From the NCBI GenBank assembly GCA_964536925.1, contig CAZHZF010000007.1, positions 5,237 to 69,236 on the forward strand: a stretch of 64,000 nt of DNA, read 5' to 3'. A program made the translations under genes and the position numbers. This document shows positions 29,670 to 62,129 of this stretch, piece by piece (position 1 is the stretch's first letter; each line of letters opens with the position of its first letter). The notes under the pieces are model-generated. The model saw only the letters and a list, made by a program, of their open reading frames with translations. It was not told the origin of the DNA and searched no databases. This stretch comes from an uncultured Dehalococcoidales bacterium (GTDB taxonomy: Bacteria > Chloroflexota > UBA6077 > FW602-bin22).

Positions 29670-29690
29670 TCGAGCCTCCGGAAACAAGAA

Positions 29691-29704
29691 TCTACGCGTG
29701 TAGA
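29691..29704. promoter_or_regulatory. candidate LacI-family operator (14-bp palindrome TCTACGCGTGTAGA, central CG)
   Basis: 6 of 7 half-site pairs are complementary. It is located 22 nt upstream of the ino1 GTG and 39 nt upstream of the divergent LacI-family gene. Confidence 0.4.
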
Positions 29705-29742
29705 GTAGCGCGTCGAGGCACCGTGCGCCACCATTCACCCCT

Positions 29743-30732: not shown

Positions 30733-30744
30733 TAACGTGACGCG

Positions 30745-32185: not shown

Positions 32186-32217
32186 GATCGTGCGAAGGGT
32201 AGGGATTCCCCTTAAGA

Positions 32218-33078: not shown

Positions 33079-33114
33079 AATCCGGCCCGCGCCGGGCGGC
33101 GCGGAGGCGATCGC

Positions 33115-45511: not shown

Positions 45512-47473
45512 CTACGAGCGCGGGACGAGGCGAACGATGAGGCGCTCGTCCAAGCCGCGGCCACCGGTCGGCGCGATTTGAATCACACCGGTGCGCGCAG
45601 CCCGTTGTCCGGGCACGCCACTCAGGACCAGCCGCAGCGTGTAGCGCCGCCCGGGCTCGATCCGCGCGGGTACTGAAGCCGGATCGACCGCGATCCCGGT
45701 CGCCGCGCTGAGCCTCACCTGCGGCCCGGCGACTGCCTGGGTCGCGGCAAAGTCCACGAGAACCTCGACCGCTTCCCCTTCGGCAAGCGTTCGCGTCACC
45801 AGCCGGTTCGACCAGTTGATTCGGGCCGCGCCGGGCACGACCTGACCGAGGCCGGCGATTGCTGTCGCCGCGGCCGACTCAGTCCCGGGCGAGGGAGCGG
45901 CGATCCGCAGGCTCATTCCGCCCACGGTCGGCGTCGGAGTCACGGTATGGGTGGCGGTCGGTGTGTGGGTGCGTGTCGGGGTGAATGTCCGCGTCAGTGT
46001 GACGGTGTGGGTCAGCGTCACCGTGAACGTCGGCGTCGCGGTGAAGGTTCGCGTGCTCGTCGGCGTCTGCGTGACGGTCGAGGTCCGGCTGGGCGTGTTC
46101 GTCCGCGTCGGTGTGTGGGTGCGGGTGGGCGTGTGGGTGCGGGTGGGCGTCAGCGTGATCGTCGGCGTGAGTGTCACCGTCGGCGTCAGCGTCAGCGTCG
46201 GCGTCAGCGTGAACGTCCTCGTCGGCGAGAGGGTCCGGGTCGGGGTGATGGTGCGTGTCAATGTGGGCGTGCGCGTCAGAGTCACCGTGGGCGTCGGCGT
46301 GATCGTCCGCGTGAGCGTAACTGTCCTTGTCGGCGTCACCGTGCGGGTCAGCGTCGATGTGCGCGTCTGGGTAACAGTTCTCGTGAGTGTCTGAGTGGGG
46401 GACAGCGTCACGGTGCGGGTGAGGGTCGGAGTTCTGGTCTGAGTCGGGGTACGGGTGAGCGTCGGTGTCAACGTCGGCGCTGTTGTCGGCGACAGCGTGA
46501 CGGTCGGGGTGAGGGTGACCGTCGGCGACAGCGTCACGGTCCTGGTAGGCGTGAAGGTGCGGGTGAGGGTGATCGTCGCGGTCGGCGTCACAGTCCAGGT
46601 GCGGGTCGGCGTCGACGTACGGGTGAAGGTTGCCGTCTGAGTGACGGTCGACGTCCGACTCGGCGTGTGCGTCCGCGTGGGCGTATGAGTCCGGGTCGGC
46701 GTGTGGGTGAGCGTCGGCGTCAGGGTAATGGTGAAGGTCGGCGTGATCGTCGGCGTCTGCGTCACGGTCAGAGTGGGCGAGACCGTTCGGGTGGGTGACG
46801 GCGTTCGGGTCGACGTCGTCGTCCTGGTCAGGGTCTGGGTCCGCGTGAGCGACGGCGTGCGTGTCAGGGTGACGGTCCGTGTCAGCGACTGCGTGCGGGT
46901 CGGCGTGATCGTGCGTGTGAGCGATGGCGTGCGCGTCGTCGTGATCGTTCGCGTCAGAGTCGGAGTTCGCGTGAGCGTCTGAGTCCGGGTCAACGAGGGC
47001 GTGCGCGTCAGCGTCTGGGTGCGTGTGAGCGTCACCGTACGCGTGAGTGTCGGAGTGCGCGTCAGGCTCGGCGTGCGACTCAGGGTCGTCGTCCGCGTCG
47101 GCGTGATCGTCCTCGTCCGTGTGACCGTGCGGGTGGGTGTGATGGTGCGCGTGTTCGTCGGGGTCCGCGTGAGGGTCACCGTACGTGTCAGGGTGACTGT
47201 TCTTGTAAGCGTGATCGTCCGTGTGGGCGTGATGGTGCGCGTGGGCGTAACGGTCCGCGTGTTCGTCGGCGTGCGGGTCAGCGTGATGGTGCGGGTGAGG
47301 GTGATCGTCCGCGTCGGGGTGATCGTCCGCGTCGGGGTGATGGTGCGGGTGTTCGTGGGGGTTCGGGTGTTTGTCGGCGTGGACTGGGCAGATGCCGGAA
47401 TCGGGAGCACGAAGAGGAGGAGCAACGCGATGAGTGCAGGCGCAATGCGCCACGCGATCGCGGATCCACGCAT
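45512..47473 (-). CDS. secreted, extremely basic (Thr/Ser-X)n repeat protein with 136-aa C-terminal globular domain
   Basis: ORF 45512-47647. Codons upstream of Met59 have poor GC3, so the start is set at 47473 ([29 protein letters not shown] is signal-peptide-like). Residues 32-517 alternate T/S with X, and residues 518-653 are non-repetitive. Confidence 0.85.
45923..47380 (-). repeat. coding tandem repeat: 243 consecutive (Thr/Ser)-X dipeptide units, 18-nt (T-R-T-x-T-P/L) super-period
   Basis: A hydroxyl residue sits at every even position from 32 to 516, with a single exception (Ala332). I counted about 60 Arg and no Asp/Glu. The phase never slips. The opposite and alternate frames stay open and generate the VRVGV and H/D/A/P-rich phantom ORFs in the track. 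Confidence 0.9.
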
Positions 47474-47722
47474 CCCTGCCGCCACCACCGCTCGCTTCGG
47501 ACGGCGATTCACCGCCGGCCGGCATTCCGACGGCGCCAATACTAGGCACCCCTCGGGCAACTGTCGATGCCCTTGCCCACGCTCGCGCGCGGTCGTTACA
47601 GAACAGTCACGTTCACGCCGGTCGTGCGTCAACACAGGATGTCCCATCGAGTATCGGCACTCCGGCGCCGAGCCGCATGCGTCATTCGGACGAGCTTGCG
47701 TAGCCGGCGTCCGAAAGCGGGC

Positions 47723-48586
47723 CTATACCGAGCCTCGCCGATCGGGGTGCGCGGCAAGGTAATCGGCCATACGGCGCGCGCCGGTCGATGGGAACGTCAT
47801 GAACTCGCCACCATCCACGGTGAGCGTCTGGCCGGTGATCCAGTCCGAGAGGTCGGACACCAGATAGAGAACCGCGCGCGCGATGTCGCGCGGGTGTCCG
47901 GCGCGCTTCAGCGCTTTCAGCATCGTCGCCTCGGCCCGGCGCACCTCATCCGCCATCGCCCGCTCGTGCTCTTCGGCGGAGGGGATCGCGCCGGGGCAGA
48001 TGCAGTTGCAGCGGATCTTCGACGGGCCGAAGTCCCAGGCGACCTGGCGGGTGAAATGGACGACCGCGGCCTTCGCGGTCTGGTACGTGACATAACGATC
48101 TGATACGTGTCGCGCGTGGACCGACGAGATGTTGACGATCGCCCCGCCGCCCGCGGCCTCCATATGCGGGATCGCGTACTTGCAGCCGAGGTAGAGCGCC
48201 TTCAGGAGCACGTCGAACGACCGATCCCAGTCCGCCTCGTCGAGTTCGACGACGTTGCCGACCTTTTCCCAGTGCGCATTGTTGATGAGGATGTCGAGAC
48301 GGCCGAATCGCGCCACCGTCGCATCGATGAGCGAGGCGACCTGCTCTCCGCGCCCGACGTCGGTGGGATGGGCGAACGCGCTGCCGCCCTCGGCCGCGAT
48401 CTCCGCGGCCGCGCGATCGCCGGCCTCGGCATCGATCTCCCCGATCGCCACGTGCGCGCCCTGCCCGGCCAGGACGCGCGCGATCTCGCGACCGATCCGC
48501 CGACCCGCGCCGGTTACGATCGCGACGCGCCCATCGAGGCGCAGCAGATCACCCAGATGGCCGGCCGGGAGCCCGGTGAGACTCAT
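47723..48586 (-). CDS. SDR family oxidoreductase
   Basis: VAIVTGAGRRIGREIA (TGxxxxIG) and YVTYQTAKAA (YxxxK). The ATG overlaps the stop of the MoaD-like gene (ATGA). Confidence 0.9.
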   Translation of the reverse strand: MSLTGLPAGHLGDLLRLDGRVAIVTGAGRRIGREIARVLAGQGAHVAIGEIDAEAGDRAAAEIAAEGGSAFAHPTDVGRGEQVASLIDATVARFGRLDILINNAHWEKVGNVVELDEADWDRSFDVLLKALYLGCKYAIPHMEAAGGGAIVNISSVHARHVSDRYVTYQTAKAAVVHFTRQVAWDFGPSKIRCNCICPGAIPSAEEHERAMADEVRRAEATMLKALKRAGHPRDIARAVLYLVSDLSDWITGQTLTVDGGEFMTFPSTGARRMADYLAAHPDRRGSV

Positions 48587-48855
48587 GCGCCGCGCCCGCC
48601 GCTGATCGCCGGCAAGAAGTGCACCTCGCTCGTCGGTCCCACCCGCTCCATGAGACCGATCCGCGTGACGTAGCCGTCGACCGCCACATTGACCCGAGGA
48701 CTCAGGACGTCACCGTCCACGAGGCGCTCTCGGATTCCCGGGAATCGGGACTCCAGCGCGTTGACGATCTGGCGAACGGTCTGCCCATCGACCTCGACCG
48801 TCGCCGCGCCGCCGGTCAGTTCGCGCAGGAGTGCCGGGATGAAGACCGTTGCCAT
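48583..48855 (-). CDS. MoaD/ThiS/CysO-like beta-grasp sulfur-carrier-type protein with residues beyond the Gly-Gly
   Basis: 90 aa: MATVFIPALLRELTGGAATVEVDGQTVRQIVNALESRFPGIRERLVDGD...VHFLPAISGG-RGA. The layout resembles CysO/MoaD-type carriers. The GG at residues 86-87 is followed by three extra residues. Confidence 0.8.
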   Translation of the reverse strand: MATVFIPALLRELTGGAATVEVDGQTVRQIVNALESRFPGIRERLVDGDVLSPRVNVAVDGYVTRIGLMERVGPTSEVHFLPAISGGRGA

Positions 48856-48886
48856 GCACTTCGGGCATTCCCGTGCGAGCCGGTCG

Positions 48887-48921
48887 GCCGGACGGGCGCC
48901 GCGAGGGCGGTGCCGTCCGGC
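48887..48921. other. intercistronic GC-rich stem-loop (9-bp perfect stem GCCGGACGG/CCGTCCGGC)
   Basis: It lies in the 72-nt gap between the Mo-subunit stop (48928) and the MoaD-like start (48855). The loop contains a further CGCC/GGCG pairing. There is no U-tract. Confidence 0.35.
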
Positions 48922-48927
48922 GCGCCG

Positions 48928-51231
48928 TCACTCCCTGGGGATTACCCCGGTGTCCTCCAGGATTGCCCGCGGCGACATCGGCAAGCGGTTCATCCGGACC
49001 CCGATCGCATTGTGGATCGCCGCCGCGACCGCCGCCGGCGGAGGCACGATTGGCACCTCGCCCACGCCACGGACCCCATACGGGTGGCCCGGATTCGGCA
49101 CCTCCACGATCACCGTATCGATCATGGGCAGGTCGTAGGTCAGAGGCATGCGGTAGTCGAGGAAGGATGCGTTCGTCATCGCGCCATCTCGATTGAACAC
49201 GTACTCCTCGTTCAGCGCCCACCCGATGCCCTGGACGGTGCCACCCTGAAGCTGGCCCTCGACATAGCTCGGGTGGATCGCCTTACCGGCGTCCTGCACC
49301 GTCGTCCAGCGCAGGATGCGCACCTTGCCGGTATCGGGATCCACTTCGAGGTCGCAGATCATCGTGGCGAAAGCGCCACCATGACCGCCGGGATCCACGT
49401 TGGCGCTGCCGGTGAGCGGACCCCCGGTATGCCCAAGTTTCCCGGCGAGTTCCTTGAAGCCGATCCTGTGCGCGCCAGACGTGAACGTGCCCTCCGCGAA
49501 CGAGACCGTCGCGGCATCCACCTCCCACAGCTTTGCCGCGCGGTCCTTCATCTGCCTCACGACGTCCTGGGCCGCCTCATAGGCAGCGAGGCCGGTCGCG
49601 TAGGTCGTGCGACTGCCACCGGTGACATGGGTGAAGCCCACCGAGTCGGTATCGACCACGCTCGGCCGCACGTCCTCGGCGGCGATCCCGAGGACCTCGG
49701 CGGCCTGCATCGCGATGGACGTGCGTGACCCTCCGATGTCGGTCGACCCCTCGATGAGAGTGATCGTCCCGTCCGGATTCACGCTGATGGAACAACTTGA
49801 AGCCAGTCCGACGTTGAACCAGAAGCCATGGGCGACGCCGCGCCCTCGCTTCTTCCCGTCGCGGGCCGGCTCGAGCGGCGTGCGGTAGTGCTCGTGATTC
49901 TTCGCCACCTCGAGGCACTCGATAGCGCCGACCCGGTTGTACACCGGCCCATCGATGCGGCGCGTGCCTTCCTTCGCCGAGTTCTTGAGGCGGAGTTCGA
50001 TCGGGTCCATGCCCACCTTCTCCGCCAGTTCATCGAGCATCATCTCCGAGGCGAAAGCTGCCTGAGTCGCGCCGGGCGCGCGGTAGGCGAACGACCGGGG
50101 CTTGTTGCAGACCACGTCGTAGCCGTCGATCCGTCCGTTGGGGATGTCGTACGGCGCCCACATGCACATCGCCGCGGCGCCCACAGCCGAACCCGGGTAG
50201 GCGCCGGCTTCCATCGCCAGGGTCGAGTCGACCGCGACGATCCGGCCATCCTTCTTCGCGCCGAGGCGCGCCTTGATCCACGAGGCGGGGGACGGACCGG
50301 TCCCCTGGAACTCGTCCGATCGACTCATCAGAACCTTGACCGGGCGGCCCGACTTCTTCGATAGCAAAGCCGCGATGGGCTGGAGGTAGAGCGGGATCTT
50401 TCCGCCGAAGCCGCCGCCGATCTCGGTCGGGACAACCTTGATCTTCGAGATCGGGTGCTTCAGCACCTGGACGAGTTGATCGCGGACCGGGAACGCACCC
50501 TGCGTGCTGCCCCAGACGGTGATCGAGTCGTCGGCGCTCCAGAGCGCCGTGGCGTTGTGCGGTTCGATGTATCCCTGATGCACCGTCGCGGTGGTGACTT
50601 CTCGCTCGATGATGATGTCCGCCTCGGCGAATCCCTTCTCGATGTCCCCGAGTTCGTGACGGAAATGCTGAGCGATGTTGCTCTTCTTACCCGTGTCTTT
50701 GCCGAACTCCTGGGTCGTCACGTTATCGTGGAGCAGTGGGGCGGAGTCCTTCATCGCCTCCCGCACATCGAGCACGGCCGGCAGGATCTCCCACTCGATG
50801 TCGATGAGTTTGAGCGCCTCCTCGGCCACGTGTGGGCTGTTCGCCGCGACCGCCGCGACGGGGTGGCCCCGATAGAGCACCTTGTCGGTCGCCATCACGT
50901 TGTCGCTGAGGTGCTTCAGATTGACGTTCCCCTCGCCGAGGTCCTGCCAGCGATCGTCGGCCTCGGGGAAGTCCTTCCCGGTGATGACGGCCCGAACGCC
51001 CGGAAGCGCCGCGGCGCGTGACGTATCGATCTTCCTGATGCGCGCGTGGGCGTGGGGGCTGCGCAACACCCGGCCGTGGATCAACCCGGCGATCTTGAAA
51101 TCGGCGCCGTACACGGCGCGGCCCACGACCTTATCCACACCATCGTGACGGATCGGCCGGGTGCCGACGACGCGATAGTGCGTCGTGGCGAGAACCTGGT
51201 TGGAGCGGCTCAAGCGATCGGCGGTCCTCAT
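48928..51231 (-). CDS. xanthine dehydrogenase family molybdopterin-binding large subunit
   Basis: ORF 48928-51411, Met61 (51231). It contains YRVVGTRPIRHDGVDKVVGRAVYGADF, EIGGGFGGK and YRAPGATQ. Length is 767 aa. It overlaps the small-subunit stop by 4 nt. Confidence 0.9.
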   Translation of the reverse strand: MRTADRLSRSNQVLATTHYRVVGTRPIRHDGVDKVVGRAVYGADFKIAGLIHGRVLRSPHAHARIRKIDTSRAAALPGVRAVITGKDFPEADDRWQDLGEGNVNLKHLSDNVMATDKVLYRGHPVAAVAANSPHVAEEALKLIDIEWEILPAVLDVREAMKDSAPLLHDNVTTQEFGKDTGKKSNIAQHFRHELGDIEKGFAEADIIIEREVTTATVHQGYIEPHNATALWSADDSITVWGSTQGAFPVRDQLVQVLKHPISKIKVVPTEIGGGFGGKIPLYLQPIAALLSKKSGRPVKVLMSRSDEFQGTGPSPASWIKARLGAKKDGRIVAVDSTLAMEAGAYPGSAVGAAAMCMWAPYDIPNGRIDGYDVVCNKPRSFAYRAPGATQAAFASEMMLDELAEKVGMDPIELRLKNSAKEGTRRIDGPVYNRVGAIECLEVAKNHEHYRTPLEPARDGKKRGRGVAHGFWFNVGLASSCSISVNPDGTITLIEGSTDIGGSRTSIAMQAAEVLGIAAEDVRPSVVDTDSVGFTHVTGGSRTTYATGLAAYEAAQDVVRQMKDRAAKLWEVDAATVSFAEGTFTSGAHRIGFKELAGKLGHTGGPLTGSANVDPGGHGGAFATMICDLEVDPDTGKVRILRWTTVQDAGKAIHPSYVEGQLQGGTVQGIGWALNEEYVFNRDGAMTNASFLDYRMPLTYDLPMIDTVIVEVPNPGHPYGVRGVGEVPIVPPPAAVAAAIHNAIGVRMNRLPMSPRAILEDTGVIPRE

Positions 51232-51722
51232 GACTTTCCTCCCTCCAGGCGCTCGGACGCGTCGAGCACCGCGCGCACGATCTTGTCGTAGCCCGTGCAC
51301 CGACACAGGTTGCCCGACAGCCAGAAGCGGACACGCTCCTCGCTCGGCCGCGGCTCCCGCTCCAGGAGCGCCTTCGCGGATACGAGGAAGCCCGGTGTGC
51401 AGATGCCGCATTGCAGGGCGGCGTTCTCCAGGAACGCCTGCTGCAGGGCGTGCAGTTCACCGCTCTTCGCGATGCCCTCCACGGTCTCGATCGTGGTGCC
51501 CTGGGCCTCGACACCCAGGACCAGACACGAATTGCAGATGCGCCCATCGATTCGCACGATGCACGCGCCGCAGTTCCCGTCGTTGCACCCTTCCTTCGCG
51601 CCGGTCAGGCCGAGGACGTCGCGCAGGGTCTCGAGCAGGCTCTGCCGCGGCTCGACGAGGAAGTCCATCTCCTCGCCATTGATCGTTGCCTGGACGCGGA
51701 CGCGCGAGCTAGTGGCTGGCAT
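51228..51722 (-). CDS. (2Fe-2S)-binding small subunit of molybdenum hydroxylase
   Basis: Met56 of ORF 51228-51887. It contains GCNDGNCGACIV, the CGICTPGF cluster and NLCRCTGY. Length is 164 aa. Confidence 0.9.
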   Translation of the reverse strand: MPATSSRVRVQATINGEEMDFLVEPRQSLLETLRDVLGLTGAKEGCNDGNCGACIVRIDGRICNSCLVLGVEAQGTTIETVEGIAKSGELHALQQAFLENAALQCGICTPGFLVSAKALLEREPRPSEERVRFWLSGNLCRCTGYDKIVRAVLDASERLEGGKS

Positions 51723-52599
51723 GGACGACCTCCCCTCGTGCCCGGGCGAGCGCGCCCTGCACGACCCGTTTCGTGAACACACCGACGAGGTGGCGCCGCT
51801 GAGCGGCCGAACCTCGCATATCGCTGATCGGACGGGCGGCTGACTGCGCGGCCTCCGCGGCGCGGGCGAGAGCAGCCTCGCCGCCATCGGTGCCCACCAG
51901 AGCCGCGCCGGCCGCGGCCACGTACAACGGTGTCGGGGCGACCGATGCCAGCGCCACGCGGGCTGCCACGATCGTGCGTCGGTCCGCCGCCAGCTGGACC
52001 GAAGCGCCGACGCCGACGACCGCGATGTCCATCTCGTAACGAGGGATGAAGCGCTGATAGTGCGCGCCGCTGTGTGCGGCCGGGGCGGGAATCTCCAGTT
52101 CGACGAGGATCTCCCCGGGTGTCAAACAGGTGCGCCCGGGCGCAGTGCAGAAGTTCTCCGCGGCGACCCTTCGCTCGCCCGCCGGCCCCCGCACGACCGC
52201 GACCGCCCCGAGCGCGATGAGCGTGGGGATCGTGTCGCCACTCGGCGCCGCGTTACAGAGATTACCGCCCAGGCTGGCACGTCCCTGGATCGCGATGCCG
52301 CCCACGATCGACGCCGAGTCGACAAGACCCGCGTAATGGGTCTTGACATCGGGGTGGTCGTAGATGCGGTAGCACGGCACCGCCGCCCCCACCCGCAGGC
52401 CCTTCGCGTCGTAGGTCAGGCGGTTGAGCTCCGGAATTCCTTTGAGATCGATCACCAGGTCGGGATCGAGGCGTCCGACGCGCAGCTGGACCAGCAGGTC
52501 GGTCCCACCGGCGAAAGGCCGCGCCCGGCCGTTGCTGCCGGCGAGGGCGGCGATCGCCGCGTCCAGCGTCGTCGGCGCGGCGTACGCGAAGTCCCTCAC
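51709..52599 (-). CDS. FAD-binding medium subunit of molybdenum hydroxylase (CoxM/XdhB-like)
   Basis: GTG 52599 is preceded by GGAGGAAAACTC. It contains DFAYAAPTTLDAAIAAL...FAGGTDLLVQLRVGR. Length is 296 aa. Confidence 0.9.
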   Translation of the reverse strand: MRDFAYAAPTTLDAAIAALAGSNGRARPFAGGTDLLVQLRVGRLDPDLVIDLKGIPELNRLTYDAKGLRVGAAVPCYRIYDHPDVKTHYAGLVDSASIVGGIAIQGRASLGGNLCNAAPSGDTIPTLIALGAVAVVRGPAGERRVAAENFCTAPGRTCLTPGEILVELEIPAPAAHSGAHYQRFIPRYEMDIAVVGVGASVQLAADRRTIVAARVALASVAPTPLYVAAAGAALVGTDGGEAALARAAEAAQSAARPISDMRGSAAQRRHLVGVFTKRVVQGALARARGEVVHASH

Positions 52600-52637: not shown

Positions 52638-53147
52638 ATGATATCCTGCCCCGGCTATCTCGCCGGCGAGGTAACGAGGGCCGTGCAACTCTCTGGAAAG
52701 GCCCACATCTCGGCACCGCGTGCCGATGTGTGGTCGGCCCTGCTCGATCCCGATGTCCTGAGTGCCTGCCTGCCGGGCTGCGAGGCGCTGACGCCCACCG
52801 GGCCCGACGCCTACGAGGCGTCGGTGGTGCTTGGTCTGGCCGGCATTAAGGGGAAGTACCACGGTCGTGTGCGCATCACCGATCGGGTCGAGGAGGTGGG
52901 ATATCGCCTCGCCGTGGAGGGGGCGGGTGGCGGGAATCGCATCAAAGGCGATGCCGTGATCGAACTGCGCGACGGCGCTCGCGGCGGGACCGACGTCCAT
53001 TACGAGGGCGAAGCACAGATCGCCGGAACGCTGGCCGTGGTAGGCCAGCGACTCCTCCAGCCCGCCGCGAAGTCCATGACCGAGAAGTTCTTCGCGTCCA
53101 TCGGGACGCAGGTGCGCAAACGTGTCGCTGAAGGGAGGCGTGCATGA
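52638..53147 (+). CDS. CoxG/SRPBCC family protein
   Basis: [36 protein letters not shown]...[14 protein letters not shown]. The alternative start is GTG 52683. Confidence 0.8.
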
Positions 53148-53659
53148 CGAAATCCATCGCCGTGACTGTCAATGGCACCGAGTACCGACGGCAGGTCGAG
53201 CCGAGGCTCTTGCTCGTGCACTTTCTGCGGGATGTCCTCGGACTCACCGGGACCCACGTAGGCTGCGATACCAGCCAGTGTGGCGCCTGTACTGTGATCG
53301 TCAACGGGGAGATCGCGAAATCCTGCACGATCTTCGCCATCCAGGCCGATGGCGCGGTCATCCGCACGATCGAGGGGCTCTCCCGCGATGGCAAGCTGCA
53401 CCCGATCCAGATCGGCTTCTGGGAGGAGCACGGCCTTCAGTGCGGCTTCTGCACGCCGGGGATGATCATCGCCGCCTGGGGACTCCTGAAGCACAACCCC
53501 GATCCGACCGAGGAGCAGATCCGCCACGGGCTCGACGGGAACCTCTGTCGATGCACCGGGTATCAGCACATCGTCAACGCGATCAAGCACGCCGCGAAGA
53601 TCGACTCGCCGGCGGACTACGTGCTCGATGGCCCGGCGCCCCGCGGCGGGAGGAAGTAG
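53144..53659 (+). CDS. (2Fe-2S)-binding small subunit (CoxS-like)
   Basis: [14 protein letters not shown]..., [28 protein letters not shown]. Confidence 0.9.
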
Positions 53660-56014
53660 ATGGCCGTATCGAAGATGGTCGGCGCCCGCGTCAAGCGGGT
53701 GGAGGATCCGCGCCTCATCACCGGCGCCGGAACCTACGTCGACGATATCCGCATGGTCGATATGCTCTACGGCGCGGTCGTTCGCAGTCCGATCGCCCAC
53801 GGGCGGATCCGCGGCATCGACACGAAAGCCGCCCGCGAACAACCTGGCGTCGTCGCCGTCTATTCGGCAAAGGACCTGCAGTTCGCGGCGCCCTTGCCGA
53901 ACGCGTGGAACCTGACCGGCATCCGCGTCACCCGGCACGATCCGCTCGCGACCGACCGAGTGCGGATGGTCGGCGATGGCGTCGCCTTCGTCGTCGCGGA
54001 GACCCGCTATGGCGCGCGGGACGCCGCCGATCTGGTCGAGGTCGACTACGCCGAACTGAAGGCGGTCTCGGATCCGGAGCGTGCGCTGCGGAAGGGTGCG
54101 CCGAACGTCTGGGATAACGCGCCCGGCAACGAGGCGTACCGCACCGAGGTCGGCGACCGGGCCGCGGTCGAAGCCGCGTTCGCCAGCGCCTACAAGACCG
54201 TCAGCCTCCGGGTCGTGAACCAGCGTCTGGTCCCCACGCCGATGGAGACGCGCGGCGTCGTCGCGCGGTGGGATCGCGGGATGGAGCAACTCACGGTCTG
54301 GTCCTCAAGCCAGATCCCGCATCTGCTCAAGACAAACATCGCCCTGGTGCTCGGCCTGCCGGAGCAGAAGGTCCGCGTCATCGTCCCTGAGGTCGGGGGC
54401 GGTTTCGGCTGCAAGCTCAACATCTACGCCGAGGAGATCCTCGCCGCGCGCGCGGCGATGCTGCTCAACCGGCCCGTGAAGTGGATCGAGGAGCGGCGCG
54501 AGAGCTTCGCATCCACGATCCACGGTCGCGGCCACGTGCACTACGTCGAGATGGCGCTGAGCCAGGATGGCAAGATCCTGGGCCTTCGCAATCGCTTCAT
54601 CGCCGACCTGGGAGCCTATGCCCAGGTCAACACCGAGGCGATCCCGACGCTGGCCAACCTCGTGCTCTCCGGCGTGTACGACATGGGCGCGATCCACAGC
54701 GAACTCATCGCGGTCTACACCAACCTTCCGCCGACCGATGCCTATCGCGGCGCGGGGCGGCCGGAAGGCGTGCACGCCGTCGAACGGATCATCAATGCCG
54801 CCGCGCACGCACTCAGCATGGACCCCGCGGAGATCCGCCGCCGCAATCTGATCGCGAAGGATCGGTTCCCGTTCACCGCCAAGACCGGAGTGACTTATGA
54901 CTCCGGCGACTACGAACCCAACCTCGATCTGGCGCTCAACGTCTCGAAATACGCCGAACTGCGGGCGGAGCAGGCGCGGGTCAACGCGGGCGGTACCCAT
55001 CTCATGGGCGTCGGCGTGGCCATGTACATCGAACTCTCTGGCTTCAATCCCTCCGGCGCCGGTGGCGGCATCGGCTGGGAGAGCGGCACGGTGCGGTTCG
55101 AGCCGACCGGCAAGGTCACGATCTATACCGGCGTCTCGCCCCACGGCCAGGGGCAGGAGACGACGTTCGCCCAGATCGCCGCCGATGAACTGGGGGTGCC
55201 CTTCGAGGACATCACCGTCCTGCACGGCGATACCCAGATGGTCCAGTACGGGATGGGCACCTACGGCTCCCGCGGCACCGCGGTCGGCGGCGCTGCCCTG
55301 GTGAAGGCGATCGACCGAGTCAAGGAGAAGGCGAAGCGGATCGCCGCGCTTCTCCTCGAGGCCTCGCCCGACGACATCGTGTACGACCAGGGGCGGCTCT
55401 ACGTGGGTGGAGTTCCCGGTCGCGCGGTCACGGTCCAGGAGGTGGCGGGAACCGCTTACCTCCACGTCGACAAACTGAAGAATGAGATCGATCCCGGCCT
55501 GGAGGCGACCGCGACCTTCGACCCGACCAACTTCACCTGGCCGTACGGCACCTACATCGCCGTCGTCATCATCGACCGCGAGACCGGCGAGGTGAAACTC
55601 CGCGATCTCTTCGCGATCGACGATGTCGGCCGCGTCATCTCGCCGCTGCTCGTGGCCGGTCAGGTGCACGGCGGGATCGCCCAGGGGGTCGGCCAGGCGC
55701 TGTTCGAGGGAGCGCAGTACGACGAGAATGGACAGCCTCTGACAGGTTCGCTCATGGACTACGCGCTTCCCATCGCGTCGGAACTGCCGACCTACGTGCT
55801 CGCCGCGACCGAGACGCCCACGCCGGTCAATCCGCTCGGCGCCAAGGGTGTCGGTGAGGCCGGGACGATCGGCGCGACGCCGGCGGTGGCCAACGCTGTC
55901 GTCGATGCCCTGCAGCAGTTCGGCATCGACGAGGTGGAGATGCCCATCACCTCGGAGCGGATATGGCGGGCGCTCCATCCCGCGACTCAGACAAAGAAGG
56001 GAGGCCGGCGATGA
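53660..56014 (+). CDS. CoxL-like molybdopterin-binding large subunit, form II type (AYRGAGR loop)
   Basis: VGARVKRVEDPRLITGAGTYVDD and EVGGGFGCK are present. The active-site loop reads AYRGAGR at residues 361-367 (nt 54740-54760), not the Cys-containing form I CODH loop. Confidence 0.9.
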   Translation: MAVSKMVGARVKRVEDPRLITGAGTYVDDIRMVDMLYGAVVRSPIAHGRIRGIDTKAAREQPGVVAVYSAKDLQFAAPLPNAWNLTGIRVTRHDPLATDRVRMVGDGVAFVVAETRYGARDAADLVEVDYAELKAVSDPERALRKGAPNVWDNAPGNEAYRTEVGDRAAVEAAFASAYKTVSLRVVNQRLVPTPMETRGVVARWDRGMEQLTVWSSSQIPHLLKTNIALVLGLPEQKVRVIVPEVGGGFGCKLNIYAEEILAARAAMLLNRPVKWIEERRESFASTIHGRGHVHYVEMALSQDGKILGLRNRFIADLGAYAQVNTEAIPTLANLVLSGVYDMGAIHSELIAVYTNLPPTDAYRGAGRPEGVHAVERIINAAAHALSMDPAEIRRRNLIAKDRFPFTAKTGVTYDSGDYEPNLDLALNVSKYAELRAEQARVNAGGTHLMGVGVAMYIELSGFNPSGAGGGIGWESGTVRFEPTGKVTIYTGVSPHGQGQETTFAQIAADELGVPFEDITVLHGDTQMVQYGMGTYGSRGTAVGGAALVKAIDRVKEKAKRIAALLLEASPDDIVYDQGRLYVGGVPGRAVTVQEVAGTAYLHVDKLKNEIDPGLEATATFDPTNFTWPYGTYIAVVIIDRETGEVKLRDLFAIDDVGRVISPLLVAGQVHGGIAQGVGQALFEGAQYDENGQPLTGSLMDYALPIASELPTYVLAATETPTPVNPLGAKGVGEAGTIGATPAVANAVVDALQQFGIDEVEMPITSERIWRALHPATQTKKGGRR

Positions 56015-56889
56015 TCCCGGTCGCGTTCGACTATGAAGCCCCGGCGACGGTCGCTGAGGCGCTGAAACTGCTCAGCCGGCTCGGCGATCGAGCGAAGGTC
56101 GTCGCCGGCGGCCACAGCCTGATCCCCACGATGAAACTGCGGCTCGCCCAGCCCGAAGTGCTCATCGACATCAGTCGGATCGACGAACTGCGAAGCATCA
56201 CGTCGGAGGGCGATCGACTGGTCCTGGGCGCCCTGGCGACCCACGCTCAGGTGGCATCGAGCGACCTCGTCCGCAGGCAGGCTCCCCTGCTCGCCGAGGT
56301 GGCGGGGATCATCGGCGACCCGCAGGTCCGCAACCGCGGCACCATTGGAGGATCGCTCGCCCACGCCGATCCGGCGGCGGACTATCCCGCCGCCGCGCTT
56401 GCCCTCGATGTCGAGGTCGTCGCGCGCGGCCCCCGAAGCGAGCGGACCATTCCGATCACCCGGTTCTTCCGCTCGCTGCTCACCACCGCGCTTCGGCCGA
56501 ACGAGTTGATCGTGGCCGTGCGCGTGCCCAGGGCGGCGCGCGGCCAGGGAGGGGCGTACCTGAAACTCGCGAACAAGGCGTCGCACTATGCGGTGGTGGG
56601 TGTCGCGGCTTCGGTGCAGGTCAGCCGGGGGAAGATCTCCGCGATCGCCATCGGTGTGACCGGCGCCGGGAGTACGCCGCGACGCGCCGCCAGGGTCGAG
56701 CGCGCGCTGCTCGGCGAGGTACCGGACGCGGCGACCGTCGAGCGGGCATCGGCCAGCGCCGCGGACGGGCTGGATCTTCTGTCCGATATCCACGGATCGT
56801 CCGAATACCGGGCGCACATCACGCGTGTGTACACCCTCCGGGCGATCGATGCCGCTCTGGGCCGCGCGGGGGTGGCCCGGGCCGCCTGA
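56011..56889 (+). CDS. FAD-binding medium subunit (CoxM-like)
   Basis: ATG 56011 overlaps the large-subunit stop (ATGA). It contains MIPVAFDYEAPATVAEALKLL...VVAGGHSLIPTMKLRL. Confidence 0.9.
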   Translation: MIPVAFDYEAPATVAEALKLLSRLGDRAKVVAGGHSLIPTMKLRLAQPEVLIDISRIDELRSITSEGDRLVLGALATHAQVASSDLVRRQAPLLAEVAGIIGDPQVRNRGTIGGSLAHADPAADYPAAALALDVEVVARGPRSERTIPITRFFRSLLTTALRPNELIVAVRVPRAARGQGGAYLKLANKASHYAVVGVAASVQVSRGKISAIAIGVTGAGSTPRRAARVERALLGEVPDAATVERASASAADGLDLLSDIHGSSEYRAHITRVYTLRAIDAALGRAGVARAA

Positions 56890-56899
56890 CCGAGGATCG

Positions 56900-56930
56900 G
56901 GGATCGTGGCCCTGAGCCGGCCACGATCCC
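56900..56930. terminator. bidirectional terminator-like hairpin (12-bp perfect stem GGGATCGTGGCC/GGCCACGATCCC, 7-nt loop)
   Basis: It sits between the convergent coxM-like stop (56887-56889) and the xdhC-like stop (56930-56932). No clear U-tract on either side. Confidence 0.5.
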
Positions 56931-58126
56931 TAAAGATCTGGCTCTTCGATCGACTCGTTGGCGCGGAGGCGTCGCTGGAATCGGTCGCGCAGCCGATCGG
57001 ACATACGGGGTGCCGGGCCCTCCCGCCGTGTGTTGACGATCTCGGCCATGATCGACACCGCGATCTCCGCCGGCGTCTCCGCGCCGATATCCACACCGAT
57101 GGGCGCGTGCACCCGGCCGAGCAGGTCGGCCGCTACACCCTCATCGTGAAGGAGCTTGAACACCGCCCAGACGCGTCGCTGCGCGCCGATCATCCCGATG
57201 TAGGCCGATGGGCGATGGATCAGATGACGGAGGGCGAACACATCGTGGGCGTGCGCTCTTGTTACCAGGACCAGGTAGGTTCGCGAATCGACAGCGAGTC
57301 GCTGGACCGCCGTCTCGACATCTTCGACGATCACTTCGGCTTCGGGGAACCGCTCGCGGTTCGCAAAGGTCGCCCGATCGTCGATCACGGTGACGCGGAA
57401 GTCGCAGAGATGGGCGATGCGCGCCAGCGGTTGAGCGATGTGCCCCGCGCCGAGGATGACGATGCGAGGTGGTGGCGCGTGTGGCTCCAGGAGGATATCG
57501 ACCGTCGCCGCGTCTGGCTCGGGGCCGAGGGGATAGGTCGCGGTCGTGGGCTCCTCCCTGGCGAGCGCCGCGACCGCGGCGGGCGCGACACGATCGTCCA
57601 GCGCGGTTGAACCAAGCGAGCCGACGCGCTCGCCGTCCCATCGAACGAGCATCTTCGCGCCCACCGGGATCGGGCTTGCCCGGCGCCGCTCGATCACCGT
57701 CGCCAGCGTAACCGGAGTGCTGCTCTCGAGCGCGGGAAGGAGCGCCAGTTCGGCAGCCGCACCGGGGCCGAGCGCCCCGCCGCGCAACAGGCCAGTCTGA
57801 TCCGGCCCCCACGACTCCACGAAGACATCAAGAGTGCCGCCGCACACGCCCTCGGACTTGATGTCGATCTCTTCGGTCAATTCGACGTGGACCATGCGGG
57901 CGCGGCCGTCGGCGATCACATCCAGCGCGGTTCGCCACACCTCCGCCTCACCGCAACCGCCGCCGACCGTGCCGAGCGCCTCGCCCGCGGACCGAATGAT
58001 CATCTTCGCGCCGACTTCCCGTGGCGTGGAACCGCGCGTGCGCGCGATCGTCGCCACCGCGACGCGCTGGCCCTCGGCGGCGACCTCGTCGATCCGACGG
58101 TAGAAGTTGCCGAGATCCTCACTCAT
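56930..58126 (-). CDS. XdhC/CoxI family molybdenum-cofactor insertion accessory protein
   Basis: VAVATIARTRGSTPREVGAKMII...GTVGGGCGEAEV, plus a second Rossmann-like domain (RIVILGAGHIAQPLARIA). Confidence 0.85.
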   Translation of the reverse strand: MSEDLGNFYRRIDEVAAEGQRVAVATIARTRGSTPREVGAKMIIRSAGEALGTVGGGCGEAEVWRTALDVIADGRARMVHVELTEEIDIKSEGVCGGTLDVFVESWGPDQTGLLRGGALGPGAAAELALLPALESSTPVTLATVIERRRASPIPVGAKMLVRWDGERVGSLGSTALDDRVAPAAVAALAREEPTTATYPLGPEPDAATVDILLEPHAPPPRIVILGAGHIAQPLARIAHLCDFRVTVIDDRATFANRERFPEAEVIVEDVETAVQRLAVDSRTYLVLVTRAHAHDVFALRHLIHRPSAYIGMIGAQRRVWAVFKLLHDEGVAADLLGRVHAPIGVDIGAETPAEIAVSIMAEIVNTRREGPAPRMSDRLRDRFQRRLRANESIEEPDL

Positions 58127-58248: not shown

Positions 58249-59184
58249 TCACCGCCCGTAGATTGCGAGCCAGTCGCGAACGATCGAGCGGATGTAATTG
58301 TGATCCGCCTCGATGGCGGAGAGCGGGTCGCCGGGTCCAGCGCCCGACTCGATGCTCACCCACCCGTCGAACCCGGCACGGTGCATCGCGCTCACCGCCC
58401 ACCGGTAGTCGATGTCGCCGTCGCGCATCGAGGCGCGCTGGCTCACGTAACGACCGGCTGTCGCATCGTAGTGGCGCGTGCAACTCTTGACGTGCCAGAG
58501 ATTGGTGTGCGCGGCCATGGCCAGCAGGGCATCGCGCCAGTTCTCCGTGGCGTACGGGACGCGGTAGCCGTTCTGCAGATCCGGATTGACTCCCACGTTA
58601 TCCCGGTCGATCAGGTCGAGCAGTTTGAGCGCGAAGATGGAGCGATCGATCATCCCGTCGTCGTGCAGTTCGATGCTCAGTTCGACGTTCGCCTGCGCGG
58701 CACGGTCCGCCAGGCGCTGGAGCTTCTCCGCGGCAAGTCTCCAGTCGTCCTCGGTGTAATCGTCGCCTCTACGGAGGCGGGTCTGCCGGTCGGCTCGCTC
58801 GGCATCGGTCATCTGGGCGGGGAACGGATCCGAGAGCGCGACGTTCAGGTAACGCGCGCCCAGGATGGTTGCGACCTCGACGGCCCGAAGGAGCTTCCGT
58901 TCGTTCGCGGCCGCGTCCGGGTGGCCGACGACGGAGCACCGATAGGGGTTGAGCGCGCAACAGTCGAGATCGAGGCCATCGAGCTGAGCGCGGAACTCGT
59001 GGAGGTCATCGTCCGTCATCGCGTGCCAGTTCATCCAGCTATCCGCGAGGTCGATACCGTCGAATCCGTTGAGGCGCGTCCAGAGCAGGAACGGCGCGCG
59101 CTCGTCCGCGGTGGGCACGTAGGAGAAGATCGGATGGGGATAGTTCCATCCGGTGAGAATGGTCGTCGCGAGTGCGAACTTCAC
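58249..59184 (-). CDS. sugar phosphate isomerase/epimerase (xylose-isomerase-like TIM barrel)
   Basis: The length and pattern of conserved acidic/His positions (ELHDDGMID, NPDLQNGY, VSIESGAG) are typical of AP-endonuclease-2/IolE-like TIM barrels. Confidence 0.75.
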   Translation of the reverse strand: MKFALATTILTGWNYPHPIFSYVPTADERAPFLLWTRLNGFDGIDLADSWMNWHAMTDDDLHEFRAQLDGLDLDCCALNPYRCSVVGHPDAAANERKLLRAVEVATILGARYLNVALSDPFPAQMTDAERADRQTRLRRGDDYTEDDWRLAAEKLQRLADRAAQANVELSIELHDDGMIDRSIFALKLLDLIDRDNVGVNPDLQNGYRVPYATENWRDALLAMAAHTNLWHVKSCTRHYDATAGRYVSQRASMRDGDIDYRWAVSAMHRAGFDGWVSIESGAGPGDPLSAIEADHNYIRSIVRDWLAIYGR

Positions 59185-59297
59185 CTGACCGATGGCTCCG
59201 AACGATGAATGGGGAGGCTATCCTATCACCCGCGCGCGCAGGTTCGACCCCACTGGTCGCATCGGGCGCCGAGTCTTCCCCGGGGAGTGGGCCGCGC

Positions 59298-59933
59298 GTG
59301 CGCATCGTCGATCTGACCCTGCCATTCGACCCGACGAATCCGCGCGTCTCCTTCGCACCGCACCGGGATATCCTGGTCGATGGGTGGCGAATCACCAGGG
59401 TGACCTTCGACACACACGCCGGGACCCATCTCGATGCGCCGAGTCACCAGCTGGTCGACGGCCCGCCCCTGCAGAGCATCGATCTCGCCCGCTGCGTCGG
59501 TCCGGCGTTCGTCTGTGACCTCCGGCACATCTTGCCTCGCGAGACGATCGAGATCGAGGACTTCGCGCCGTGGGAGAGCGCGATCGCGCCCGGTGCGAGA
59601 GTCCTCTACCGCACCGACTGGACCGCGCGCGTCGGCGAGCCAGGCTACCGTGAGAGATTCCCCTGCCCGTCGGTCGCCTGCGCGCGGTGGCTTGCCGACC
59701 GCGGTATCGCTCTGCTCGGCATGGACACCCCCTCAGTCGGACCGGTCTACCGCACGCCCGCGGAAGTGATCGCCGTCCACGAGCCACTCTTGCGCCGTGG
59801 CGTCGTCATCCTGGAGGAGTTGGCTCCGCTCGCCGTCCTGGCTGACGCGCCGTTCCAGATCGTCGCGCTGCCGCTCGCGCTGACCGACCTCGACGGATCG
59901 CCGGTGCGCGCCGTCGCGCTGGTGCAGGACTGA
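59298..59933 (+). CDS. cyclase family protein (kynurenine formamidase-like fold)
   Basis: GTG 59298 gives VRIVDLTLPF and HAGTHLDAPSH (HxGTHxDxPxH metal motif). Confidence 0.8.
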   Translation: MRIVDLTLPFDPTNPRVSFAPHRDILVDGWRITRVTFDTHAGTHLDAPSHQLVDGPPLQSIDLARCVGPAFVCDLRHILPRETIEIEDFAPWESAIAPGARVLYRTDWTARVGEPGYRERFPCPSVACARWLADRGIALLGMDTPSVGPVYRTPAEVIAVHEPLLRRGVVILEELAPLAVLADAPFQIVALPLALTDLDGSPVRAVALVQD

Positions 59934-60826
59934 TGCGGCTCGCGGCATCGGGCGAGGTGTTCCCGCCGCGCATCTCCGCGTTCACCGCCGCGCACGCGGC
60001 GCGCGTGCGGGAACTCGGCTTCACCGGGTGCTTCACCCGGTTCGATCTCGATGATCCCTTCGCGACGACCGAATCGGACGTGCGCCGCGTCCGGGCGATC
60101 CTGGATGACCACGGGCTCGAGATGGTTCAGGCGATCGGGTATCGCCCGCCTCTGATCCATCCGGATGACAGCGTGCGCCAGCAGGGCATCCGTGTGCTTC
60201 GGCGCGCGCTGTGGATCGCGGGAGGCCTGCGCGCGCACTCCTGCCACACCGGCCCGGGGAGTCTGGCGCAGGCCGGCATCACGCGGGCCGACTGGGTGCG
60301 CTCCGGCGCCTGGAACCCGCACCCGGGAAACTGGGATCCCGCCTGCGTCGACCGGCTCGTCGATAGCCTCCGCGCATGTGCCGGCGCCGCCGAGGACAGC
60401 GGCACAAGGATCGGTCTGGAGGGGCACGTCCTCGTGACGCTCGACTCGGCGGAAACGATGCGCGATGTGATCGACGCGGTCGGGTCGCCGGCGGTCGGCT
60501 GCGACCTCGATCCGGTCAACTGGCTGCGCCTGGAATCCGTCTATCGGAGCGGCGAGGCGATCGATCGCATGGTGGACATCCTCGGCCCGCGACGCATCCT
60601 CAACGCGCATTCGAAGGACGTGGTGGTCCAACCGCGCCTCGTGACCCATATCGAGGAGTGCCCGACCGGCCAGGGCATCCTCGATCACGATCGGCTCATC
60701 CTGCGGATGGAGGAGATCGGCCCCGAGCGGTACTTCGTGCTCGAACATGCCGCGGAGGCGGACCTCATCACGGGCCGCGCTTTCCTGCTGGCGCGCGCTG
60801 CCGCGCTGGGCGTACGGGTCTGGTAA
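59933..60826 (+). CDS. sugar phosphate isomerase/epimerase (TIM barrel)
   Basis: The start overlaps the upstream stop. The TIM-barrel pattern includes IGLEGHV and HSKDV. Confidence 0.75.
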   Translation: MRLAASGEVFPPRISAFTAAHAARVRELGFTGCFTRFDLDDPFATTESDVRRVRAILDDHGLEMVQAIGYRPPLIHPDDSVRQQGIRVLRRALWIAGGLRAHSCHTGPGSLAQAGITRADWVRSGAWNPHPGNWDPACVDRLVDSLRACAGAAEDSGTRIGLEGHVLVTLDSAETMRDVIDAVGSPAVGCDLDPVNWLRLESVYRSGEAIDRMVDILGPRRILNAHSKDVVVQPRLVTHIEECPTGQGILDHDRLILRMEEIGPERYFVLEHAAEADLITGRAFLLARAAALGVRVW

Positions 60827-60930
60827 GCGCGCGGCGAGGATCGGGGACCGGCGTCGTCCGGGCTGACGGTGGCTCATCCCGCAGGTGATAGGATGGGCGA
60901 AGGCGCAAACAGACCTGAGAGGAGCGAGAG

Positions 60931-62067: not shown

Positions 62068-62076
62068 ACGCGCGCT

Positions 62077-62106
62077 GCCCGGCGTGCGCGCGAACGCACG
62101 CCGGGC
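62077..62106 (+). terminator. terminator-like hairpin (12-bp perfect stem GCCCGGCGTGCG/CGCACGCCGGGC, 6-nt loop)
   Basis: It begins 10 nt after the stop at 62067. It has no U-tract. The GGAGG Shine-Dalgarno of the next gene follows. Confidence 0.45.
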
Positions 62107-62129
62107 CTCACGCCCCCGGAGGGTGATAG

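Follow-up and report, generated by a model that had tools for sequence, protein, structure and literature searches.

A conserved CysO-like beta-grasp protein encoded behind xanthine dehydrogenase-family operons: a candidate sulfur carrier dedicated to one molybdenum enzyme

Why should the gene of a small ubiquitin-fold protein stand directly behind the subunit genes of a molybdenum hydroxylase, and what could its product do there? The question is raised by a 64,000-nucleotide stretch of DNA (contig CAZHZF010000007.1, positions 5,237 to 69,236; hereafter the window) from an uncultured Dehalococcoidales bacterium, in which an open reading frame (ORF) for a 90-residue MoaD-like protein follows, on the same strand, the genes of the flavin adenine dinucleotide (FAD), 2Fe-2S (FeS) and molybdenum (Mo) subunits of an enzyme of the xanthine dehydrogenase (XDH) family, as Pfam matches and coordinates confirm. 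The preferred reading, to which we assign a probability of roughly 0.5, is that the protein is an enzyme-dedicated sulfur carrier of the CysO/MoaD type, which matures the Mo cofactor of the upstream three-subunit enzyme.

The ORF, read from 48855 to 48583, is translated as MATVFIPALLRELTGG...HFLPAISGGRGA followed by the stop codon (start and C-terminal letters, MATVFIPALLRELTGG...EVHFLPAISGGRGA), and its codon-position GC content (GC3 0.82, GC2 0.48) agrees with that of the neighboring genes. The Pfam ThiS profile (PF02597) matched the protein from position 2 to 76 of its 76 positions with E = 2.6e-10 and 41.1 bits, against a gathering cut-off of 22.5, which places it in this family. The NCBIfam models SAMP1, moaD_arch and moaD also matched, each below its cut-off; the best was SAMP1 (E = 8e-11), whose equivalog NF041918 scored 42.3 bits against a cut-off of 60, and the moaD equivalog TIGR01682 reached 19.7 bits against 66.15. 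An AlphaFold2 model, computed with 34 homologues as input, had a mean pLDDT of 90.6 and showed the strand and helix order of a beta-grasp fold. When this model was submitted to Foldseek, the top matches were CysO of Amycolatopsis (4n6e_B) and of M. tuberculosis (3dwg_C), with a TM of 0.89 and 36-40% identity, followed by SAMP1, MoaD and Urm1, and the matches to all four proteins were at a probability of 1.00; a profile search of PDB sequences returned the same order (4n6e_B, E = 2.3e-16; 3dwg_C, E = 1.4e-11). The protein is thus a beta-grasp member of the ThiS/MoaD family with CysO as its nearest solved relative, as a sequence-only reading of the window had proposed; a different fold, which that reading had named as its refutation, was not obtained. 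A word-indexed search retrieved 601 homologues, almost all from Chloroflexota metagenome bins; the database members of the family all come from uncultured genomes under generic names, many of them labelled 'molybdopterin synthase sulfur carrier subunit' by JGI, and the exact 90-residue protein had no record in the contig index searched.

The association with the enzyme genes was examined from both sides. A scan of one genome per species with the small protein gave 80 loci (counts are over loci L001-L082), and a reciprocal set of 80 metagenome loci was fetched by the Mo subunit alone; neighboring genes in the loci were identified by tblastn with the window's own proteins. The FAD, FeS and Mo-subunit genes lay directly upstream of the MoaD-like gene, on the same strand, in approximately 65 of the 82 loci, which were mostly from Dehalococcoidia, with Bryobacteraceae, Gemmatimonadetes, Planctomycetales and Latescibacterota also represented. 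The Mo-subunit stop and the MoaD-like start were separated by only about 2-10 nucleotides (nt) in many loci, and in several the gene was located between, or just behind, two Mo-subunit paralogues. From the other side, approximately 33 of the 39 three-subunit operons fetched by the Mo subunit (54-97% identical) carried the MoaD-like gene immediately downstream; it was mostly missing beside orphan Mo-subunit copies. Independent gene calls and Pfam labels confirmed the arrangement in Acidobacteria-like, Dehalococcoidia and alphaproteobacterial contigs, the four-gene string being found in a peat contig, a 4.49-Mb Dehalococcoidia contig (ERZ25067264) and two alphaproteobacterial contigs; in the latter two, no further genes of the kind accompanied the four, which were flanked by housekeeping genes (hfq-hflX and groES, for example). 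Complete chromosomes with the module include OZ245405.1, OZ220697.1 and OZ242262.1. The order FAD-FeS-Mo subunit-MoaD-like is thus a conserved unit in at least six bacterial phyla (Chloroflexota, including the abundant SAR202/Dehalococcoidia, Acidobacteriota, Gemmatimonadota, Planctomycetota and Latescibacterota, together with Alphaproteobacteria), and the pairing first noticed in the window is real.

The genes further downstream behave differently. In the window, the stop codon of the MoaD-like gene overlaps the start of a short-chain dehydrogenase/reductase (SDR) gene in an ATGA, which can be read straight from the sequence and had been taken as a sign of coupling; the overlap stands, but the SDR lies outside the conserved unit, since it follows the MoaD-like gene only in the four closest loci (L001-L004) and in the metagenome contig L083. 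Elsewhere, the downstream genes encode dihydrodipicolinate synthase (DHDPS)-family aldolases (37 loci), alpha/beta hydrolases (28), methyltransferases (15) or PIG-L deacetylases (11). Because these neighbors, the SDR included, vary between lineages and are missing from the alphaproteobacterial modules, they were rejected as core partners. In loci L037, L058, L069 and L072, the PIG-L start overlaps the MoaD-like stop, and MR_MLE dehydratases, amidases and CoA-transferases occur near the recurrent set of PIG-L, DHDPS-family and alpha/beta-hydrolase genes, which hints at the catabolic pathway in which the Mo enzyme of Dehalococcoidia takes part. Eight stand-alone copies of the small gene, beside a zinc-dependent alcohol dehydrogenase gene, dxr and rseP and also proS, formed one clade nested within the XDH-linked ones by neighbor-joining. 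Rare in-frame fusions were also encountered (P0122, at L163 589-1707; P0202; P0187), in which a MoaD-like domain with an internal Gly-Gly is joined to an alpha/beta hydrolase, a methyltransferase or a multi-pass membrane protein; considered as a hint of a processed polyprotein, they were set aside as singletons whose fused domains are not orthologues of the common neighbors. An apparent fusion of the Mo subunit to the MoaD-like protein in L146 was discarded as a frame artefact, as its coordinates placed the two parts in different frames.

The C-terminus of the protein was then compared across the family. The Gly-Gly pair occupies residues 86-87 and is followed by Arg-Gly-Ala (RGA), a true three-residue extension, since the last position of the PF02597 profile falls on Gly87. 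Among the 34 aligned members, the invariant residues include P7, P39-G40, D60, S76-E77-V78-H79-F80, A83 and G86-G87; the C-terminal motif SEVHF[LI]PA..GG is conserved, and the Gly-Gly is kept in all 34. The residues after it are absent in 16 of the 82 loci, number one in 29 and two in 11, and extend to as many as 23 in the rest, with no conservation of sequence; an alphaproteobacterial subfamily of 82-residue proteins ends exactly at the Gly-Gly. The RGA tail of the window is unlike those of other members in both sequence and length, except for its nearest relatives (RGG), and it coincides with the four-base overlap into the SDR gene. Thus, the capped Gly-Gly that had been described is indeed present here, as both the translation and the profile end confirm, but the cap is not conserved across the family. 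As the tails range from 0 to 23 residues, are unconserved and are missing in the 16 loci and in Alphaproteobacteria, no meaning can be demonstrated for RGA, except that it implies a need for C-terminal trimming in the organism of the window. An invariant Gly-Gly with a variable extension is what ubiquitin-type precursors and capped sulfur carriers show.

Proteins that could act with such a carrier were looked for in the window and in the loci. Approximately 50 window ORFs, picked by third-position GC, were scanned with Pfam, and none of them encoded a ThiF/E1, JAMM, MoaE or PALP enzyme; tblastn of the 64-kb window with MoeB, Mec+ (M. tuberculosis), MoaE and CysK likewise gave no match, although negatives from these queries are weak. 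The earlier statement that no E1, JAMM, MoaE or cysteine-synthase partner is recognizable in the window is therefore upheld. With the same queries, no MoaE was detected within 10 kb in the 82 small-protein loci, no CysK-like match was obtained in L001-L162, and an E1 was found only at the edge of L081; the positive tblastn matches, namely JAMM and the MoaE of L162, were confirmed by motif, by ORF reading or by a Pfam Prok-JAB label (L166). Among the loci fetched by the Mo subunit, MoaE was found only in L162 and L155. In L162, a proteobacterial-looking contig (8376-10907), the three subunit genes are followed by a MoaD-like gene ending in KIAGG, and approximately 1.5 kb past it by mobB, a canonical moaD (ending in FFPPVTGG) and moaE; the two groups are separated by a DUF gene and a CDP-alcohol phosphatidyltransferase-like gene. 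Since the canonical moaD-moaE pair is also there, the XDH-linked gene is distinct from the housekeeping moaD, at least where both are visible, and the possibility that it is simply the housekeeping moaD found next to moaE in other genomes was not borne out in the loci screened.

XdhC homologues were seen in only 6 of the 162 loci screened (L001-L162). In L004, an XdhC that is 77% identical to the window orthologue is encoded directly upstream, so that the locus reads XdhC-FAD-FeS-Mo subunit-...-MoaD-like; in L100, the order is FAD-FeS-Mo subunit-MoaD-like-XdhC, with a more distant homologue (31% identical). As XdhC and the MoaD-like gene co-occur in L004, in L100 and in the window lineage, the MoaD-like protein does not simply replace XdhC, and the XdhC encoded in the window is a possible trans-acting partner of it.

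In 14 of the 82 loci, the Mec+ query pointed, as a lead, to a JAMM gene of 140 codons with the motif E...HSHTHSPAYPSPTD, which is encoded on the other strand at a distance of 5-10 kb, and a Prok-JAB gene was independently labelled in L166 (1-329). These JAMM genes sit among housekeeping genes (apt, cytidylate-kinase-like), the carriers in all 14 JAMM-containing loci are tailed, and no second ThiS-like ORF was detected in any locus, so that the XDH-linked carrier is the nearest candidate substrate. Because the JAMM loci are related to one another, their proximity lends only weak support to the view that a trimming protease is available to the tailed carriers. In one Dehalococcoidia subclade (L037, L038, L043, L045, L049, L052, L054, L055, L059, L071 and L080), a retropepsin-like ORF of approximately 120 codons (motif F[RL]VDTGS; Pfam Asp_protease_2) lies about 55-170 nt downstream of the MoaD-like gene; the carriers next to it all have a one-residue tail, and it could be a processing protease or be unrelated.

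The partner enzyme itself could be placed only broadly. Its Mo subunit is approximately equidistant from 4-hydroxybenzoyl-CoA reductase, CoxL, 6-hydroxypseudooxynicotine dehydrogenase and quinoline oxidoreductase, the nearest PDB chains being 4-hydroxybenzoyl-CoA reductase (1rm6_A), CoxL (8uem) and 7dqx, and all matches to NCBIfam equivalogs fell far under their cut-offs. The GVGE(V)P motif with the catalytic Glu of Mo=S-dependent hydroxylases is present, as GVGEVP.

The case for a sulfur carrier is made by the beta-grasp fold, by the relatives CysO, SAMP1 and MoaD and by the conserved SEVHF[LI]PA..GG motif; that for a role in maturation, by the linkage to the enzyme genes, the clustering with XdhC (L100, L004) and the precedent of MoaD genes linked to aldehyde ferredoxin oxidoreductase (AOR). 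We infer trimming, activation, thiocarboxylate formation and the sulfur acceptor as follows. The tail, RGA in this organism, would be removed, probably by a JAMM/Mec+-type peptidase encoded elsewhere in the genome, and Gly87 thereby exposed; a trans-encoded E1 of the MoeB/MoeZ type would then adenylate the C-terminal glycine, leading to a thiocarboxylate, the sulfur of which would pass to the cofactor destined for the upstream enzyme. It is to be noted that the sharing of one E1 by several carriers is usual in Actinobacteria and Thermus. Two acceptors come into question, namely the terminal Mo=S ligand, possibly while XdhC binds the cofactor, and the molybdopterin dithiolene sulfurs. That sulfur would be delivered to the Mo center is plausible, and the coexistence with moaD-moaE and the tracking of one hydroxylase family would tilt the choice towards the sulfido ligand. 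In its most specific form, in which the thiocarboxylate donates the terminal Mo=S of the XDH-family enzyme, the proposal would amount to a second, ubiquitin-like-carrier route of molybdenum cofactor (Moco) sulfuration, which may run alongside or instead of the persulfide route of XdhC and a NifS-type cysteine desulfurase. We regard this form as rather unlikely, although it would account for three features, namely that the gene tracks one hydroxylase family and not Moco genes in general, that in L162 it is found together with a canonical moaD-moaE pair, and that it can be sited beside xdhC.

Several observations weigh against a dedicated sulfur carrier. Neither the operon nor the 64-kb window was found to encode an E1, a JAMM protease, MoaE, a rhodanese or a cysteine desulfurase, so that every chemical step is one that we infer. 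Non-conserved tails of 1-23 residues follow the Gly-Gly in 80% of the orthologues, and if their trimming were inefficient, chemistry at a free C-terminal carboxylate would be impossible. Approximately 15% of the orthologous operons are without the MoaD-like gene, and nothing takes its place there; unrelated contexts were seen even for close members of the family (62% identical), one clade being stand-alone. The tight spacing to the Mo-subunit gene is equally typical of a stoichiometric subunit, and the JAMM loci belong to related Dehalococcoidia genomes and are not independent observations.

The spacing leads directly to an explanation without any sulfur chemistry, namely that the protein is a non-catalytic fourth subunit or an assembly chaperone, which would bind the Mo subunit non-covalently, as TmoB does with the toluene monooxygenase hydroxylase, and would stabilize it or keep it open for cofactor insertion. 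The gap of a few nucleotides in many loci resembles the spacing of the enzyme's subunit genes among themselves, Alphaproteobacteria have the four genes as an autonomous module, the protein tolerates tails of 1-23 residues, and activating enzymes were not found nearby; with TmoB, a beta-grasp protein of unknown role is already on record as an enzyme subunit (PMC1779556). However, the invariant Gly-Gly and SEVHF.PA are a hallmark of carriers that insert their tail into an active site, and every one of the nearest relatives is a true sulfur carrier or modifier. Purified AOR lacks the analogous AorD and AorE, and in the window a structured spacer of 72 nt stands between the gene and the subunit genes; overall, such a subunit or chaperone appears unlikely. 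The same Gly-Gly would serve a covalent modifier similar to SAMP1, which would be trimmed, activated by an E1 and attached via Gly87 to lysine residues, either in the enzyme or in proteins that make the cofactor, the conjugation being regulatory and reversed by a JAMM protease, as for SAMP1, MoaE and HvJAMM1 in Haloferax. SAMP1 is the best NCBIfam match, its structures are among the top fold matches, the variable, precursor-like tails recall ubiquitin-type modifiers, and JAMM genes occur within 10 kb in 14-15 loci; regulation of molybdopterin (MPT) synthase by SAMP1 and HvJAMM1 is the subject of PMC4443979. Since the SAMP1 score nonetheless fell short of its cut-off (42 against 60 bits), no operon contained an E1, conjugation is not known for any member of the MoaD-like family, and sulfur carriage is the commoner role of the beta-grasp fold in bacteria, we consider conjugation quite improbable.

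Two further explanations retain the sulfur chemistry and direct it elsewhere. The protein could be the ordinary small subunit of MPT synthase (MoaD), merely sited beside the main Moco enzyme of the cell, as would agree with the JGI label on many members, with the stand-alone clade among housekeeping genes (dxr, rseP, proS) and with the fact that SAMP1-type proteins act as MoaD in Haloferax. This is difficult to reconcile with the canonical moaD-moaE pair 1.5 kb from the XDH-linked gene in L162, with a moaD equivalog score of 19.7 bits against a cut-off of 66, with the near-absence of MoaE from the screened loci and the window, with the closest relatives being CysO and not MoaD, and with the nesting of the stand-alone clade inside the XDH-linked ones; an ordinary MoaD is accordingly judged very doubtful. 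Alternatively, the sulfur could be destined not for the enzyme's cofactor but for a small-molecule product of the surrounding pathway, as with CysO, HcyS, QbsE and PdtH. The closest relatives (CysO) do give sulfur to metabolites, genes of DHDPS-family enzymes, alpha/beta hydrolases, methyltransferases and PIG-L proteins are frequent downstream, and in rare cases the carrier is itself fused to an alpha/beta hydrolase or a methyltransferase. Nonetheless, only the three enzyme subunits are universally conserved neighbors, the downstream genes being variable and missing in the alphaproteobacterial modules; the fused domains are not orthologues of the common neighbors, and acceptor enzymes such as a pyridoxal phosphate-dependent sulfhydrylase, a ThiG-like protein or an AMP-ligase were not found in the neighborhoods, which leaves a metabolite donor improbable as well.

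The preferred reading, i.e., a sulfur carrier dedicated to one Mo enzyme, was also compared with known systems. MoaD genes strictly adjacent to those of the tungsten AOR have been predicted to make the cofactor of that enzyme (PMC1779556; Iyer et al. 2006), and such AOR-adjacent MoaD genes are known from several reports (PMC1779556, PMC2948915, PMC6365974). AorD and AorE were not present in the AOR purified from Aromatoleum aromaticum (PMC6365974), and when aorDE was added to the expression plasmid, the specific activity of recombinant AOR rose from 4.5 to 16 U/mg in one comparison (PMC9295118). Both systems place a small MoaD-family gene right beside the genes of one pterin-cofactor oxidoreductase, separate from the housekeeping Moco operon, and the strict adjacency across distant lineages seen for AOR was found here as well, but with an XDH-family partner instead of AOR. 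The partner here is of the XDH/CO dehydrogenase (CODH) family, a mono-pterin Mo enzyme with FAD and 2Fe-2S subunits, whereas AOR is a tungsten bis-pterin enzyme; AOR neighborhoods often contain MoeB, MoaE or MoaA, and the present ones almost never do; and the protein described here is CysO-like in sequence, whereas those linked to AOR are MoaD-like.

CysO itself (M. tuberculosis Rv1335; Amycolatopsis orientalis; PDB 3dwg, 3dwm, 4n6e) is closest both by profile (E = 2e-16) and by fold, and shares the N-terminal IPxxLRxxTGG and the C-terminal LPA..GG motifs. However, CysO shares its operon with CysM and the JAMM protease Mec+ and feeds cysteine synthesis, whereas no cysteine synthase was found near the present gene; no operon of the CysO type was recognized, as the window contains no PALP gene and JAMM occurs only 5-10 kb off, outside the operon, in 14 loci. 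Moreover, CysO ends at the Gly-Gly, and most members of the present family are capped. Capped carriers are reportedly known from work of the Begley laboratory, in which HcyS-Ala and QbsE-CF are said to carry one or two residues after the Gly-Gly that are removed by the JAMM proteases HcyD and QbsD before adenylation. One- or two-residue tails dominate the present family too; however, the protease and the E1 of HcyS and QbsE are encoded in the same operon, whereas the JAMM gene here, when seen, is 5-10 kb off on the other strand. XdhC and PaoD offer a likeness of another kind, as products of accessory genes that close XDH-family operons at the 3' end and are required solely for maturation, although their fold and chemistry are unrelated to those of the MoaD-like protein. 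XdhC together with a cysteine desulfurase installs the Mo=S ligand, and a 2026 review of the Mo sulfido ligand, which makes no mention of MoaD or sulfur carriers, discusses no other route in bacteria (PMC13653126). The word 'xanthine' is absent from the 2006 and 2010 surveys of ubiquitin-like (Ubl) gene neighborhoods (PMC1779556, PMC2948915), 'CO dehydrogenase' is also absent from the former (PMC1779556), and a literature search on MoaD-like genes in operons of aldehyde oxidoreductases or of the XDH family yielded no report on the latter. The earlier claim that the pairing is undescribed thus holds for the XDH family in these sources, but not for a Ubl gene beside a pterin-cofactor enzyme in general, as the tungsten AOR shows. 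Enzyme-linked maturation factors of the MoaD family are already known; a description with an XDH-family partner was not found in the surveys, the review or the literature search.

The features of the locus are collected in Table 1. The limits of the three subunit genes were set after the gene calls in the relative L001, whose Mo-subunit gene is 97% identical to that of the window. The spacer before the MoaD-like gene had been described as containing a strong stem-loop, which proved to be overstated: RNA folding gave -48 kcal/mol over 86 nt, but only z = -2.0 relative to shuffles of this GC-rich sequence, and no terminator-like U-tract follows the hairpin.

Table 1. Features of the window around the MoaD-like gene, and loci in which a JAMM gene was located
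Feature	Position	Strand	Basis or remark
MoaD/CysO-like beta-grasp protein, 90 aa	48583..48855	minus	translation, Pfam ThiS, AlphaFold2, Foldseek
Mo-cofactor-binding large subunit, XDH/CODH family, 767 aa	48928..51231	minus	Pfam Ald_Xan_dh_C, MoCoBD_1, MoCoBD_2
2Fe-2S small subunit	51228..51722	minus	Pfam Fer2, Fer2_2
FAD-binding medium subunit	51709..52599	minus	Pfam FAD_binding_5, CO_deh_flav_C
SDR-family oxidoreductase	47723..48586	minus	Pfam adh_short_C2; NCBIfam PRK07231 subfamily above cut-off
GC-rich hairpin	48877..48933	minus	overlaps Mo-subunit stop codon, takes up most of the 72 nt that separate it from the MoaD-like start
XdhC-family Moco chaperone	56930..58126	minus	Pfam XdhC_CoxI, XdhC_C; 8 kb off, beside second XDH-family cluster
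JAMM loci	5-10 kb upstream	opposite	L010, L011, L013, L021, L026, L029, L033
JAMM loci, continued	5-10 kb upstream	opposite	L043, L052, L054, L057, L059, L066, L070

Other parts of the window were also annotated. A second XDH/CODH-family cluster on the plus strand (52638-56889) encodes a CoxG-like protein, a 2Fe-2S subunit, a Mo subunit with the AYRGAGR loop of form-II CoxL-like proteins and a FAD subunit, and is followed by the convergent xdhC gene; it contains no MoaD-like gene. Between the SDR and aldehyde dehydrogenase genes on the minus strand (45512-47647) lies an ORF of approximately 700 codons for a Thr/Pro/Arg-rich repeat protein with an N-terminal hydrophobic segment, the DNA of which has tandem repeats with periods of 18, 36, 54 and 108 nt; the corresponding position in L001 is occupied by a 428-codon ORF with no Pfam match. 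An operon-like triad from 34331 to about 37900 on the minus strand encodes a circularly permuted ATP-grasp protein, an Alpha-E domain protein and a transglutaminase-like protein, a known conserved trio with a predicted function in peptide ligation or peptide modification, and appears unrelated to the MoaD-like gene. A large polysaccharide-biosynthesis cluster (505-27721) contains many glycosyltransferases of families GT1, GT2 and GT4, methyltransferases, a flippase-like Polysacc_synt fusion, a polysaccharide deacetylase, DUF1616 and several long ORFs without Pfam match (8110-9741, 9741-12224). Inositol or sugar catabolism in the surroundings of the locus is suggested by the genes at 28545-34338 and 58249-63023, among which are those of myo-inositol-1-phosphate synthase, a LacI regulator, GFO/IDH/MocA oxidoreductases, xylose-isomerase-like TIM barrels and an SMP-30/gluconolactonase.

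The meaning of the finding lies in the maturation of this enzyme family. XDH-family enzymes are inactive without correct maturation of the cofactor, the terminal sulfido ligand included, and a conserved CysO-like fourth gene in operons that are mostly without xdhC points to an extra or alternative step in that maturation. It follows that caution is due where databases label such MoaD-like genes 'molybdopterin synthase sulfur carrier subunit', and that the small gene should be co-expressed when such enzymes are produced heterologously, for which the gain in AOR activity with aorDE offers a parallel.

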